Positions 9,549 to 30,244 of a stretch of 64,000 nucleotides of DNA are shown in pieces (position 1 is the first letter of the stretch; each line of letters begins with the position of its first letter). The position numbers and the translations under genes were made by a program. Source of the stretch: Promethearchaeota archaeon (lineage in GTDB: Archaea > Asgardarchaeota > Lokiarchaeia > Sigyniarchaeales > SOKP01); assembly GCA_048938895.1 (NCBI GenBank), contig JBHLLU010000006.1, forward strand, positions 1-64,000, given 5' to 3'. The notes under the pieces were generated by a model that was not told the DNA's origin, did no database searches, and saw only the letters and a list, made by a program, of their open reading frames with translations.

Positions 9549-10277
9549 TTGACAGAAACAACTAAACTAGCTGTAATAGCTGACATTCATGCAAATAAAT
9601 ATGCTTTAGAGAGTTTTCTTCAATATAATGAAGAACATTTTCAGGCAGAGAAGATATTAAATTTAGGGGACTTTGTCTCAATTGGTCCACATCCTAATGA
9701 AGTAGCTCATATTATTTTCAATGATAAAAGATTTGAGAATATACTTGGAAATAATGAAATGATAATGTTGGGAAAACGAAAAAGTGAATGGCGTAGACCT
9801 TCTTCACCTCATCACGAATGGATTGCTAGCCAACTTGGCAAAGATTTAGTTGAAGTAATAAAGAAGATGGCTTCTTTAAAATATCTTGATATAAATGGAA
9901 ACAAATTGCTAATGCTTCATTCATATCCTTATGATGATCCAAACAGGACAATTATGGACAATCTTTTAATCTATCAAGGTAAGTCTCTTGAAGAATTTGT
10001 AAAAGATTATCCTGAAAATGTTGACATTATATTGGTTGGCCATTCTCATTTGCAATTATATATTGATTGGAAAGGTAAGAAAATTATAAATCCCGGCTCG
10101 ATTAGCATCAATTGGAAACCAAGAGCATCTTTTTGTTTGTTAGAGATTGATGATGATAACTTGAATGTTAATTTCAAAAATATTCCTTACGATTTTTCCA
10201 AATTAAAGCACGATTATGATAAAAATAAAGTGGTAGCAAAAGATTTTCTTATTAAATATTTTTATCCATTTATCTAA
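9549..10277 (+). CDS. calcineurin-like metallophosphoesterase (YfcE-like)
   Basis: ADIHAN, LGD, GNNE, GHSH, INPGS. Confidence 0.88.
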   Translation: MTETTKLAVIADIHANKYALESFLQYNEEHFQAEKILNLGDFVSIGPHPNEVAHIIFNDKRFENILGNNEMIMLGKRKSEWRRPSSPHHEWIASQLGKDLVEVIKKMASLKYLDINGNKLLMLHSYPYDDPNRTIMDNLLIYQGKSLEEFVKDYPENVDIILVGHSHLQLYIDWKGKKIINPGSISINWKPRASFCLLEIDDDNLNVNFKNIPYDFSKLKHDYDKNKVVAKDFLIKYFYPFI

Positions 10278-26304: not shown

Positions 26305-27098
26305 TATATTATCCCCCTTAATGACAGAATTTTTTTTTTTATATTTTCAGATTTCATTATAGAAGAACCAATTAAAAAAGCATCTGCTCCATAAGATTGA
26401 AGATATTTAATGTCTTCAAGGGAATTTATTCCACTCTCACTAATTACAATAATATTATCATCAAATAGTCGCTTGATTTCAGGGATTAATACTTCAGAAA
26501 CTGATAAATCAATTTCTAATGTTTTGAGATTTCTATTATTTACTCCAATCAAATTAAGTTTCATTCCAATCTCTTTTAAGTGCTCAATATCTTTGATCTC
26601 TTCAATATTATGTATTTCAATTAATGGTTCCAAATTGAATTCTTGCGCTAACTCTAGCATTTCTTCAAGGTTTCCAAGAAGATTGATAAGTAAGATATTT
26701 GTGGCACCCAAGTCTTGAGCTATCTTAAATTGGGTATCGCAAAAGACAAAATCTTTCATTAAGCACGGGAGATTACTTTCTTCTGACGCTAGATAAAGAT
26801 TTGAAAATGAACCACTAAAATATTTCGGTTCGGTAAGGATACTAAGCCCAATGACTCCAGATTCCTCCATTATATGTACAAGCTCAGGTATATTAATTTC
26901 GTTCCTAATTTCTCCTAGCGTTGGAGATGCTGGTTTAATTTCTGATATAATCGAGATCCCATTGTTTACTTTAATAGCACTACTTAACGATCCCCGATTT
27001 TGGTCTTTTGATTTTTTATCAAGAGCATTCAATTTCTTAAATTGTTGCTCTAACGATTTCTTGCGACTTTCAAGAATTTCAAATAATATATTTGACAT
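26304..27098 (-). CDS. trpC: indole-3-glycerol phosphate synthase
   Basis: EIKPASP, SILTE, KDF, GVNNRNL, SESGI, LIGSSIM. Confidence 0.95.
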   Translation of the reverse strand: MSNILFEILESRKKSLEQQFKKLNALDKKSKDQNRGSLSSAIKVNNGISIISEIKPASPTLGEIRNEINIPELVHIMEESGVIGLSILTEPKYFSGSFSNLYLASEESNLPCLMKDFVFCDTQFKIAQDLGATNILLINLLGNLEEMLELAQEFNLEPLIEIHNIEEIKDIEHLKEIGMKLNLIGVNNRNLKTLEIDLSVSEVLIPEIKRLFDDNIIVISESGINSLEDIKYLQSYGADAFLIGSSIMKSENIKKKILSLRGII

Positions 27099-28183
27099 TA
27101 TTTTTCTAATTTTAGTGAGTTATAATTTTTTCCGCTCGAAACTTGAATAAGTTCCTTAAGAGTGCCCAAAGCTTTTCCAGATTCGATAGAGTCTTTAGCA
27201 ATTGAAACACCTTCTATGAAATCATTTGTTATATTTGCACTTTTTAACGCTAAAGCGGCATTCATTAAAACAGTATTGTATTTTGCTCCATTATCTTCAT
27301 TCTTAAGGATTTTTCTAGCAATTTCCAGATTTTCTTCAAGGCTCCCTGCTAAAAGATCATTTATTGTACAATCAGGAAGGTGAAAATCTTTATTTGTAAT
27401 TGCATAACTTTCAAGAGTGCCATTATTATATTCCGTTATATAATTTATTCCAACTGGTGCTAGTTCATCAATCCCACATGAATTATAAACGGTATACACG
27501 TGTTTTGCTTCTAGATTCTGTAATACTTTTGCCATTATTGGTGCTAAATCTTTATTAAACACACCTAATATATGATATTTGGCATTTGCAGGATTTGTAA
27601 GGGGACCAAGAATATTAAATACTGTTCTTGTCTTGATTTCACGTCTAGTTGGCATCGCATATTTCATAGCTGGATGAAATAAAGGTGCGAACATGAATCC
27701 AAACCCTACTTGTTCAATACAATTTTTGACATTCTCTGGTTCTAAATTAATATTTACTCCTAAACCTTCTAATAGATCCGCACTTCCACAATTGCTAGTT
27801 ACAGCACGATTACCATGTTTAGCGATGGGTACTCCAGAACCTGCAACCACTAAAGCAGAAATTGTGCTTATATTAAATGTTTTAATTTTATCTCCTCCTG
27901 TACCACATGTATCTAATAATTCTCCAATTATTTGGGGTTCAATACAAGTCGCAAACTCTCTCATAATTCGTGCAAAACCAGTAATTTCTTCGTAAGTTTC
28001 TCTTTTCATCTGTAAACCCATTAAAAGTGCACCCAACTGAGCATCAGTCACTTTTCCAGACATTATTTCTCTCATAACATCTTCTGCTTCTTTTATAGAA
28101 AGGGATTCTCTTTTACTTAATTTCTTTAATCCGTTAATTATGTTTTCCTCAGACATTTTAAATCTACTTTTGTTTTCATTCAA
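27098..28183 (-). CDS. trpD: anthranilate phosphoribosyltransferase (start may be ATG 28156)
   Basis: DTCGTGGD, FNIST, AKHGNR, GSADLLE, HPAMK, RTVFNILGPLTNP. Confidence 0.96.
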   Translation of the reverse strand: MNENKSRFKMSEENIINGLKKLSKRESLSIKEAEDVMREIMSGKVTDAQLGALLMGLQMKRETYEEITGFARIMREFATCIEPQIIGELLDTCGTGGDKIKTFNISTISALVVAGSGVPIAKHGNRAVTSNCGSADLLEGLGVNINLEPENVKNCIEQVGFGFMFAPLFHPAMKYAMPTRREIKTRTVFNILGPLTNPANAKYHILGVFNKDLAPIMAKVLQNLEAKHVYTVYNSCGIDELAPVGINYITEYNNGTLESYAITNKDFHLPDCTINDLLAGSLEENLEIARKILKNEDNGAKYNTVLMNAALALKSANITNDFIEGVSIAKDSIESGKALGTLKELIQVSSGKNYNSLKLEK

Positions 28184-28223
28184 TTTTAATAGTCTAATCT
28201 AATTGATTTTATAGTTCATAATA

Positions 28224-28352
28224 TCTTAGAATTTCTGATAATCTTAAAAGATGTTTTAAGTCATTGGATTTTCATTAAAATACAAAATGAAAGCGATAGT
28301 GATTACAAATCAGAAAATCTAAGAATTAATTTAAACAATTGAATTAGGCGTT
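28224..28352 (-). promoter_or_regulatory. structured trp leader RNA (candidate attenuator platform)
   Basis: 15/16 inverted repeat 28224-28239/28309-28324 enclosing two 7-bp hairpins (28243-28260 and 28270-28292); AACGCC at 28352-28347 is complementary to the Trp-codon region. Confidence 0.6.
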
Positions 28353-28405
28353 CACACACGCCACCAACACTGCCAACGCCAAGAAAATATTTTTACAGTT
28401 GACAT
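28352..28405 (-). CDS. trpL: Trp-rich leader peptide MSTVKIFSWRWQCWWRV
   Basis: ATG TCA ACT GTA AAA ATA TTT TCT TGG CGT TGG CAG TGT TGG TGG CGT GTG TGA; AGGATGA RBS 8 nt upstream; lies directly before trpD on the same strand. Confidence 0.85.
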   Translation of the reverse strand: MSTVKIFSWRWQCWWRV

Positions 28406-28413
28406 TTATTAAA

Positions 28414-28464
28414 TCATCCTTAAATTATTAGGTTTTAAGATTTGTTAATTTATATACTTTATTT
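28414..28464 (-). promoter_or_regulatory. BRE-TATA promoter and RBS of the trp leader
   Basis: Minus strand reads AAATAAAG-TATATAAA (TATA at 28456-28449), then AGGATGA (28420-28414). Confidence 0.55.
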
Positions 28465-28576
28465 GTTTTTTAGGAAAGAAGAAATTAAATATCCTGATGA
28501 AATTTAGTTAGTGTGAATTCCTAAATCTTTTAATAAAAAATTAAGAGGTTAAAAAATTTTTTTTTGGTTTAGATTC

Positions 28577-30244
28577 CTAAACATCAGGAACATCGTAAAA
28601 TAGTAATTCCTTTATTCGATCCATCATGTTAGCTGTTAATCTTCTGAGTTCATCATAATCCGGCATAGGTTTATCCCAATATTGTTTGTGCTCCATAAAA
28701 GGTTCACCTGCCCTTAAAATTTGACCCTTGTAGAAACTTAACATCTTCGCATGCTTGGGATAAGTTGATTCGGTGCCAGTTATCCCTATAGGGATTATCG
28801 GGGCTTTTGTTTGGATTGCTAATCGCATTGGTCCCGTATGTCCCTCTAATAGTTGACCATTCCCTGTATTAGTTGTACCCTCTGGATATGTAATAACAAC
28901 TTTCCCTTCTTCAAGAAGTTTTCTTGCATATTCAAATGATTCGACATCGTGCATTCCGCGTTTTAATGGGAACGCATGGTGATCTCTAACCCATGCATTA
29001 ACAAGAGGAATTTTAAAAAGAGATTGTTTTGCCATCTGGTAAGCAACACGTCTAGGAGGGTGATGTATAATACTTGCTGCTAGAATTAGAACATCCCATT
29101 CGGAATTATGACTTGGACAAATAAGAGCTGGACCTTCAGCAGGAATATATTTATCAAAATCAATTGCTCTATATGGCATCATTATATCAGACCAACCGCA
29201 GACGAGATCGCCTGAGAAACATTGAACAGATCTCTGGAATTGCTCTCGAACTCCAAATTCTTCTAAACTCCTTAAAAAAGCATACCACGCGTCATCTATA
29301 AGTTTTACAACACCTTTGGCTTGATCCTTTAAATAACTCATTATGTTAAACTTTGATTCTTTCTGAACTTCTTCTGGAGAACCAATAGATAATTCTTGCT
29401 CTTCTTTCCTACCATAAAGACCCTCACGTAATTCCCATACCACATTTCTCAATTCATCCGTCAATCTTCTTATATCCTCATAAGATACTGAATTAATATC
29501 GTAATCGTTATAATGAATGGGATCAGCCACACGTACTTTAACTTGAGTCGGTTTCATAACCAATTTCCCCTTGGGAAGTGCGTTTCGGCTTCCAATTACC
29601 GCCATAGGTACTATTGGAACCTGCATCTCTATTGCGAGTCTTACTGCTCCCGTTTTGAACTCACCTAATTCTCCATCATAACTACGAGTACCCTCTGGAA
29701 ATATTCCAACCCACTCTCCTCCGCGGATAATCTCTTTAGCTTTATTCCATCCTCGTTCGGGAGTTTCACGATCTACTTTAAATGCCCCTAGATTATGAAA
29801 GAGAGTTTTTACAATTGGTGTCTTAAAATTGTCTAATTTGCTCATGTAGCGAATCCTTCTATGACAAGCCGCCCCATAGAAAAATGGATCTAAATGGCTT
29901 TCATGATTGCCAACAAGAATGCCTGGACCCCACTCTGGAAACATGTTCTCCTTCGGATATTCTGTTTTAAAATTCCAGAATGTTCGAACCGCCCATTTGA
30001 TATAAACATAAGCAGCCCACCATTGAAGCCTTCCTTCTATTTGTTTTAAGTCTAATCGTCTAATTATGTACCTATATAAGTCATTAAGAGGGTCAATAGG
30101 ATTGAATTTCATAATTTTATAAGTCCAGTCTTGATGTCGTTTCTCGTATTTTAATTCTTCTTGCATCTTTTCTTCTGTGGACTTCCGACGTTCGATTTCT
30201 GCGGCGATTTCATAACCTTTTTTCTCTATTTTTTCAAGCACCAT
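28577..30244 (-). CDS. lysophospholipid acyltransferase with two tandem PlsC domains
   Basis: NHESHLD..FPEGTR and SHNSEWD..YPEGTT: two HX4D/PEG sets. Confidence 0.9.
   Translation of the reverse strand: MVLEKIEKKGYEIAAEIERRKSTEEKMQEELKYEKRHQDWTYKIMKFNPIDPLNDLYRYIIRRLDLKQIEGRLQWWAAYVYIKWAVRTFWNFKTEYPKENMFPEWGPGILVGNHESHLDPFFYGAACHRRIRYMSKLDNFKTPIVKTLFHNLGAFKVDRETPERGWNKAKEIIRGGEWVGIFPEGTRSYDGELGEFKTGAVRLAIEMQVPIVPMAVIGSRNALPKGKLVMKPTQVKVRVADPIHYNDYDINSVSYEDIRRLTDELRNVVWELREGLYGRKEEQELSIGSPEEVQKESKFNIMSYLKDQAKGVVKLIDDAWYAFLRSLEEFGVREQFQRSVQCFSGDLVCGWSDIMMPYRAIDFDKYIPAEGPALICPSHNSEWDVLILAASIIHHPPRRVAYQMAKQSLFKIPLVNAWVRDHHAFPLKRGMHDVESFEYARKLLEEGKVVITYPEGTTNTGNGQLLEGHTGPMRLAIQTKAPIIPIGITGTESTYPKHAKMLSFYKGQILRAGEPFMEHKQYWDKPMPDYDELRRLTANMMDRIKELLFYDVPDV

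Follow-up and report, generated by a model that had tools for sequence, protein, structure and literature searches.

We analyzed a window of 64,000 nucleotides, the start of contig JBHLLU010000006.1 of a Promethearchaeota archaeon (assembly GCA_048938895.1), and found that positions 28,224 to 28,405 encode a conserved two-module RNA with attenuator-like logic, which lacks a bacterial terminator and for which no antiterminator of the bacterial kind is supported. The first module, P1, is an imperfect hairpin formed by the final Trp and Arg codons of a short leader ORF with the strand that follows the stop codon. The second, P2, is a long-range stem between the leader and trpD. We define a type-B trp leader RNA as one that carries both the stop-codon hairpin and the long-range stem, and the leader in the window has both. 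Our confidence is evenly divided on the broader reading, in which this stretch would be the RNA part of a Trp leader-peptide control element that Loki-type (Promethearchaeia) Asgard archaea have conserved and would work as a ribosome-gated attenuator with P1 and P2 as its modules. All coordinates are those of the window, and all features described here lie on its minus strand.

The leader ORF (MSTVKIFSWRWQCWWRV plus a UGA stop; 28352..28405) has 17 codons, 4 of them UGG (W9, W11, W14, and W15), and lies 195 nt 5′ of trpDCFBAEG. An SD-like site (AGGAUGAU; 28413..28420) is located 8 nt 5′ of its start codon, and a TATA-like box (TATATAAA; 28449..28456), ∼45–50 nt 5′ of the leader ATG, is the presumed promoter of the leader-trp transcript. 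Relatives carry similar signals: among 38 distinct upstream regions aligned on the ATG, most have a TATAAATA-like box at a comparable distance, and a AAAAUAUGAUUUAA block in the 5′ UTR, matching the SD-like site of the window, is kept. The operon itself, trpD-trpC-trpF-trpB-trpA-trpE-trpG, was assigned from Pfam matches and ORF coordinates. It is complete, its genes are tightly packed (28156 to 21518), and the trpD ATG is at 28156. The stretch had been proposed to be a trp leader, and the finding of a four-Trp ORF with an SD-like site and a TATA-like box at the head of trpDCFBAEG bears this out. Upstream of the leader lies an unrelated acyltransferase gene. By TrpD, close relatives are Promethearchaeota or Promethearchaeia metagenome-assembled genomes, in agreement with the placement of the window in Lokiarchaeia. 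The trp operon is patchily distributed: TrpD was present in 3 of 36 sampled same-genus genomes and, at the level of the order, in 34 of 154, the window's own genome included.

Small ORFs that end in a Trp cluster, typically W-x-W-x-W-R, also precede trpD in relatives. By our own reading of the locus listings, such an ORF stood before trpD in 12 of the 16 examinable loci of the first relatives and in 17/17 further loci with a usable TrpD N-terminal match (3 more loci gave none). The counts were 22/25 for close metagenome loci, 21/23 for Asgard-like genome records, and 2/20 for distant metagenome loci; credible cases in other archaea and bacteria came to 0/22. The genome of the window has a second leader of this kind (MKLATTPEWCWQWPWRWR) on contig C67, ∼160 nt 5′ of a gene encoding a 467-aa TrpB2-like protein. 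The relatives fall into two RNA architectures. Type A, seen in same-genus relatives and in the C67 leader, has a 3′ domain unlike that of the window, in which an outer stem surrounds the hairpin AUAUUG-AAUUC-CAAUAU; this domain is 87% paired vs. 31–46% in slid controls, and one of its pairs shows 10 double changes. A K-turn reading of the type-A bulge was dropped, the G-A pairs being absent. Type B has the long-range stem of the window, with the core UUAGAAUUUCU/AGAAAUUCUAA. In many relatives, a conserved protein of 80–105 aa is encoded directly before trpD, after the RNA domain. A Pfam search of this small ORF returned no family, and the ORF is missing from the window's locus; a tblastn search of the genome gave no clear homologue (best E 0.005).

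P1 joins the end of the leader ORF to the sequence behind it. In the window, ACGCC directly after the stop codon (28347..28351) pairs with GGCGU of the W15-R16 codons (28358..28362) to form P1a, with a predicted energy of −8.6 kcal/mol. Together with A28352, the 3′ arm reads AACGCC and has a distal alternative partner, GGCGUU of the W9-R10-W11 codons (28375..28380; −7.6 kcal/mol). The original prediction had described AACGCC at 28352-28347 as complementary to both 28380-28375 and 28362-28358, and both complementarities are indeed present. The two hairpins are nearly balanced in the predicted ensemble, with probabilities of 0.55 for the proximal and 0.44 for the distal form. The 24-nt stop hairpin (−8.6 kcal/mol, z −2.84) was equaled by 5 of 500 dinucleotide shuffles. 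From the best duplex, we also recognized an outer extension, P1b, in which GUUGG of the C13-W14 codons (28364..28368) faces UCAAU (28338..28342). The latter strand is the equivalent of a conserved CAUUGG/CAAUGG box that lies ∼12–18 nt after the stop in relatives and pairs there with CA(G/U)UGG codons as the outer helix. P1b is weak in the window, with a pair probability of 0.07–0.12; in 26 distinct type-A rows, 82% of its cells are paired. We had also considered the CAUUGG box as a T-box-like UGGN site for a tRNA 3′ end and dropped this idea, as the next base varies.

Complementarity between the regulatory codons and the post-stop strand was found across 40 distinct leaders; in the window, the 5′ strand of P1 is W14-W15-R16. 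For the duplex of the final five codons and the stop with the 20 nt that follow, the mean energy was −11.3 kcal/mol vs. −7.4 kcal/mol for flank shuffles and −3.9 kcal/mol for downstream intervals. In 15 of the 40 leaders, the duplex was matched by at most 15 of 300 shuffles, and the other 25 were individually unremarkable against flank shuffles. The leaders are related, and therefore, Wilcoxon tests on P1 energy, like those on the T-rich zone discussed below, overstate significance. The arms vary by lineage with the pairing kept: GGCGU/ACGCC in the window and GCGCG/CGCGC, GCACGC/GCGUGC, and GGCGUU/AACGCC elsewhere.

Because the 5′ arm of P1 consists of the Trp/Arg codons themselves, the position of the ribosome must decide whether the stop-codon hairpin forms. 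The proposal that ribosome position decides the fold is thus correct for this hairpin. In silico folding with ribosome masks gave the corresponding picture: masks at W9 and W11 still allowed the proximal hairpin or part of it, and masks at W14, W15, or the stop abolished it. The further proposal that the two partners of AACGCC compete as a switch did not hold. Both partners lie inside the ORF, and the choice between them therefore passes no information downstream; comparison with relatives makes them parts of one conserved extended hairpin. They are best read as alternative registers of a single conserved arrangement, whose principle is that the post-stop strand complements the Trp-codon strand. 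Ribosome masks from W9 to W15 left the predicted P2 domain unchanged, and hence, nothing links the sensor to P2.

In the window, neither a 2:3 nor a 3:4 alternative pairing is supported. Pairing of the post-stop strand with arm 1 of P2 or with the 5′ strand of the type-A domain, as a 2:3 antiterminator would need, was rejected, since by eye it reaches 4–5 bp at most and is unconserved. In relatives, pairings seen by eye in one genus (a1:b, b:c, and c:d) and 2:4 in GC-rich relatives are possible alternatives, likewise unconserved. We saw no pairing over the trpD SD or AUG in folds of the window and, by eye, none conserved in relatives. The masked folds did pair the post-stop UUCAAUU (28344-28338) with AAUUGAA (28190-28184), ∼30 nt before the trpD start.

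The long-range stem predicted for the downstream part of the leader is real, as it is conserved in relatives, shows compensatory changes there, and is single copy. Its arm 1 (UCUUAGAUUUUCUGAU; 28309..28324) and arm 2 (AUCAGAAAUUCUAAGA; 28224..28239) form 15 pairs over their 16 positions, interrupted by a U-U mismatch, as had been proposed, and a covariance model, R1, places both in register with the arms of relatives. The P2 domain (113 nt, 28330-28218) has a predicted energy of −22.0 kcal/mol (z −3.63), equaled by 2 of 500 dinucleotide shuffles, with pair probabilities for P2 of 0.5–0.73 in the predicted ensemble. All of the pairings in the original prediction appear in the minimum-energy fold. 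The fold of the whole leader is unexceptional (z −1.10, 23/200 shuffles), and the region from the stop to trpD is similar (z −1.22, 59/500).

Alignment of the type-B set with MAFFT and RNAalifold recovered P1 alone, with arm 1 misaligned in the window and in two relatives (L044 and L142), and the covariance model was used for this reason. R1 was built from nine type-B sequences with the window excluded. It matched L063 with 61.9 bits, L059 with 44.2 bits, L044 with 36.6 bits, L038 with 30.1 bits, and the window (28380-28219) with 27.7 bits (E ∼0.008 in 86.5 kb). R1 placed P2 of the window in register but misaligned its P1; L142 (E 1.8) was misaligned and left out of the P2 pair counts. In the resulting alignment of 14 sequences, which R1 had fitted to the structure and which favors the structure for that reason, the 12 core P2 pairs were 90.5% paired, and 5 pairs had changed on both sides. 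Over the whole structure, 6 pairs had changed on both sides, compared with a shuffled mean of 1.5 (0/500 shuffles reached 6) and with 1–3 in slid controls. The homologous leaders thus do show compensatory changes in P2. Moreover, the closing stem appears in the minimum-energy fold of 15/15 type-B domains, 13 of which were matched by at most 2 of 100 shuffles.

Most P2 pairs are identical in 11–14 of the 14 sequences, and conservation is mainly at the sequence level, which could reflect protein binding instead of pairing. The changes that do occur were compared by eye. Where other sequences carry U-A, the window carries C-G, and GAU/AUC adds to its stem. The arms of L044 are UCUGAAUUU/AAAUUCAGA, and those of L142 are GGGAAUUCUG/CAGAAUUUCCC plus UAUUCGG/CCGAAUA; L063 has lost one base in each arm, and L038 pairs with 4/17 G-U. 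The stem is 12–17 bp long, its 5′ arm lies inside the U-rich zone, and the domain of variable content that it closes lies ∼70 nt 5′ of trpD. The P2 interior differs from lineage to lineage.

We also examined whether the element recurs in the genome. The 146-nt element matched only itself, and the next best BLAST match covered 57 nt at 75% identity (E 0.0037). Elsewhere in the genome, the 16-mer arm occurs once exactly, within a coding gene, and once with a single mismatch, before another gene; both copies are unpaired. The genome contains no second paired copy, which rules out a MITE or dispersed inverted repeat. A cmscan search of 27000-29500 at E up to 10 returned four weak, unrelated Rfam matches (best E 0.098), with neither Trp_leader (RF00513) nor a T-box among them.

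Two inner hairpins had been predicted between the arms of P2, and both exist at their coordinates. Hairpin A, UUUCAUU-N9-AAUGAAA (28270..28292; arms 28292-86 and 28276-70), has a pair probability of 0.5–0.63, and hairpin B, CUUAAAA-CAUC-UUUUAAG (28243..28260; arms 28260-54 and 28249-43), has one of 0.6–0.97. They are, however, not conserved in relatives, and pairs are lost even in a ∼90% identical strain. Strain variants were taken as contigs from public DNA runs, which yielded two diverged versions, one with 26 differences in 253 nt and one with 8 differences. In a strain contig, hairpin A has lost its loop-closing pair, and in hairpin B, one pair has become a mismatch and one has become G-U. 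Both diverged contigs have zero changes in the 32 arm positions of P2 and in the arms of P1a; by simple proportion, ∼3.3 arm changes would be expected in the contig with 26 differences. P1b is broken in one strain, where W14 UGG has become UCG. Across the sequences compared, both inner hairpins are lineage specific, and they are probably dispensable.

The absence of a classical terminator was confirmed. No GC-rich stem with a U-run behind it occurs between the stop and trpD, where the longest T-run is 4. The sequence from +20 to +59 after the stop (28293..28332) is T(U) rich, includes UUUU at 28317-28314, and constitutes a candidate site of premature 3′-end formation. Over 41 distinct leaders, the T fraction in this zone was 0.52 vs. 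0.38 further downstream and was the higher of the two in every leader. T-runs of at least 4 that start at +20 to +45 occurred in 37 of the 41 vs. 8–31 in other equal-sized intervals. The window follows the trend weakly, with a T fraction of 0.45 vs. 0.39 and a single UUUU. The suggested termination at short U-tracts would agree with such a zone. U-runs after arm 2 were discarded as a terminator belonging to P2: T-runs of at least 5 within 30 nt were counted by eye in 8/15 type-B leaders, about what chance predicts for the composition, and the window has none.

These parts may amount to genuine archaeal leader-peptide attenuation, a mechanism to which we give slightly less than an even chance, in which P1 gates 3′-end formation in the U-rich tract, a stalled ribosome switches the gate off, and P2 locks the U-tract away. 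When tRNA-Trp is charged or the leader is untranslated, no ribosome would stay on the ORF and P1 would form. With P1 formed, transcripts would end or be cut in the U-rich zone by archaeal oligo-U termination, possibly aided by aCPSF1/FttA. Under Trp shortage, the 5′ strand of P1 would be occupied by a ribosome stalled on W14/W15, P1 would be blocked, and the polymerase would read on. After read-through, arm 2 would be made and pair with arm 1, and the U-rich tract would be buried in the full-length trp mRNA. The archaeal RNA polymerase terminates at oligo-U without a hairpin. We know of no requirement for an upstream hairpin in archaeal intrinsic termination, and a role of P1 in termination is therefore an assumption. 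A ribosome on the stop codon would also block P1; the model therefore presupposes that the ribosome leaves quickly or that the polymerase pauses. Apart from the parts themselves and their conservation, we infer from sequence all of the working steps, including the transcript ends, the tryptophan response, and the role of P2.

The proposed element can be compared with several known systems. Enterobacterial trpL (RF00513) is a ribosome-mediated transcription attenuator with a 1:2 pause hairpin, a 2:3 antiterminator, and a 3:4 terminator. Like trpL, the leader in the window is a short ORF, just 5′ of a trp operon, whose clustered Trp codons precede Arg, and its codon strand pairs with the post-stop strand as in the 1:2 pause hairpin, such that a UGG-bound ribosome decides the hairpin. 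Unlike trpL, it lies in an archaeal host, has no Rfam match, lacks a GC-rich 3:4 terminator with a U-run, and carries the additional long-range stem P2. A 2:3 antiterminator is also unsupported; by eye, changes at the variable base of segment 3 are accompanied by changes in segment 4 and not in segment 2. In Gram-positive ermC and cat, where no terminator is involved, a ribosome that stalls on a short leader ORF protects or remodels the mRNA downstream of it, and stalled ribosomes stabilize ermC mRNA in Bacillus. The mechanism proposed here would share the stall on a short leader ORF and the lack of a terminator. In contrast, the ermC and cat stall is drug induced, and the regulated start is hidden in a hairpin; sequestration of the trpD start was not found here. 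The known archaeal trp control is TrpY, a DNA-binding protein that represses the trp operon of Methanothermobacter thermautotrophicus at promoters. Like TrpY, the element proposed for the window would control an archaeal trp operon in response to tryptophan, but what is conserved here is a translated ORF with Trp codons together with RNA pairing, G-U pairs included.

Leader-peptide attenuation, a standard example of transcription coupled to translation, has to our knowledge been described from bacteria alone. Our searches of the freely accessible full-text literature turned up bacterial attenuators only and no report of an archaeal Trp leader-peptide attenuator. The proposed mechanism, if true, would give Archaea their first ribosome-read amino-acid sensor, with a design that does without a bacterial-type terminator. 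A conserved Trp-codon leader in the closest prokaryotic relatives of eukaryotes provides a concrete, mutable test system, in which the P1 arms, the U-rich zone, and the P2 arms are the targets for mutation. It could address whether archaeal ribosomes signal to the polymerase or to its termination factor, and how a switch of this kind can operate in the absence of a hairpin-dependent terminator.

Control might instead be posttranscriptional, with the stalled ribosome and P1/P2 acting on mRNA stability or trpD translation and not on transcription. We regard this as unlikely, if the strongest of the competing explanations, and include in it variants in which P2, or a ribosome stalled near the 5′ end, blocks a 5′-to-3′ exonuclease or refolding alters access to the trpD start. 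The exonuclease idea would draw on archaeal RNase J/aCPSF2. The lack of a convincing terminator in the window speaks for posttranscriptional control, as does the location of P2, past the point of any early decision and 68 nt 5′ of the trpD ATG. So do the pairing close to the trpD start in masked folds (28344-28338 with 28190-28184) and the different, well-paired domain that type-A relatives have at the same place. However, the lack of pairing over the trpD SD or AUG, in the window and as a conserved feature by eye in relatives, counts against such control, which also leaves the conserved T-rich zone directly after P1 unexplained. Less probable again is a binding platform (TRAP, PyrR, or riboswitch type) beside the leader peptide, with P2 and its interior recognized by a protein or a small ligand. 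The arm cores UUAGAAUUUCU and AGAAAUUCUAA hardly vary amid diverged surroundings, and the conserved 80–105 aa protein lacking a Pfam family, encoded just after the RNA domain in many relatives, would suit this idea. That small ORF, however, is the one missing here (best tblastn E 0.005). The P2 interior is unconserved, Rfam gave no match, and the compensatory changes in L044, L038, L063, and L142 indicate selection on pairing itself.

It is improbable, more so than a binding platform, that the arms act as DNA, binding a transcription factor around an internal trpD promoter in a role like that of TrpY in Methanothermobacter. The arm core AGAAATTCT is palindromic, AT-rich TATA-like strings lie between and after the arms, and the 13-mer TTAGAAATTCTAA, allowing at most one mismatch, occurs 97 times in the genome vs. 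32–70 times for eight composition-matched permuted motifs. Nevertheless, the arms of L044 and L142 are complementary to each other but not individually palindromic, and the 4/17 G-U pairs of L038 are possible only in RNA of this strand. An operator would also leave the conserved leader ORF, with its promoter-like box and SD, lacking a role, and no paired copies occur elsewhere in the genome; P2 is probably not an operator. The smallest chance attaches to the idea that the stem and hairpins are functionless, reflecting chance complementarity in AT-rich DNA or the remnant of a mobile inverted repeat. The unexceptional fold of the whole leader (z −1.10), the unconserved inner hairpins, and the exact 16-mer copy elsewhere would fit it. 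This idea is nonetheless largely refuted: the 16-mer copy sits in a coding gene without a partner arm, the 146-nt element matches only itself, and 15 leaders from several genera have the stem at an equivalent position, with compensatory changes, and the diverged strains keep it unchanged. A third, less diverged strain contig (4 differences) carries UAA in place of UGA as the leader stop.

The window's genome carries a second Trp leader ORF, MKLATTPEWCWQWPWRWR, which lies outside the window on the plus strand of another contig, C67, at approximately positions 9641-9697. The RNA of this leader is of type A, comprising a stop hairpin, a CAUUGG box, and a AUUGAAUUCCAAU hairpin, and ∼160 nt downstream of the leader ORF is a gene for a TrpB2-like protein of 467 aa (C67 9857-11260). 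The trp leader in the window is of type B, combining a stop-codon hairpin (P1, formed by Trp/Arg codons and the post-stop strand) with a long-range stem (P2, 28324-28309/28239-28224). Both RNA architectures, therefore, occur within one genome.

The UUCAAUU sequence of the post-stop strand (28338-28344, minus strand) is fully complementary to AAUUGAA (28184-28190, minus strand), located ∼30 nt 5′ of the trpD ATG, and in predicted folds with the ribosome masked, the entire P2 domain falls inside this pairing. Several type-B relatives also have a AUUGAAUA box directly upstream of trpD. Two trpD loci, L023 and L025, belong to a GC-rich family within the same order and have the leader MAILPRTIAWSWRR, in which P1 is a 7-bp helix (CCUGGCG/CGCCAGG). 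When the ribosome footprint was masked in these two loci, the post-stop strand was predicted to pair instead with a downstream GCGCC, after which the sequence continues with UCUUUCU. Such pairings could constitute a three-strand switch, one that is more readable than in the AT-rich genomes.

Contigs from public runs revealed strain variants of the leader codons. A strain with ∼90% identity has UCG in place of the W14 UGG codon (window 28365), leaving three Trp codons, and a different, less diverged contig has UAA in place of the UGA stop (window 28353). Immediately 5′ of the leader start codon, a mini-ORF of two codons, AUG AUU UAA (28413-28405, minus strand), falls within the conserved 5′UTR block AAAAUAUGAUUUAA; its equivalent in relative L011 reads AUG GUU UAA. 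This mini-ORF may merely be a portion of the SD-like site.

Among sampled genomes of the window's genus, only 3 of 36 yielded TrpD (5 of 53 when more were drawn); across the order, 34 of 154 did, a count that includes the window's own genome. Since many of the TrpD-less genomes in the genus and order samples are >90% complete, it seems to be unusual within this group for a genome to have the full trp operon.

In relatives' loci (for example, L026, L028, L029, L032, L033, L036, L058, L061-L064, L068, and L107), a conserved ORF of 80-114 aa with the motif ...LINxxxxxMLGPEKxxTAxFIxxNYxDVYxIL sits between the leader RNA and trpD, ending 0-15 nt upstream of trpD in most of these examples. A Pfam search matched no family to it. 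The ORF is missing at the window's locus, and tblastn of the window's genome gave no clear homologue; an apparently decayed copy is present in L010 and in L060.
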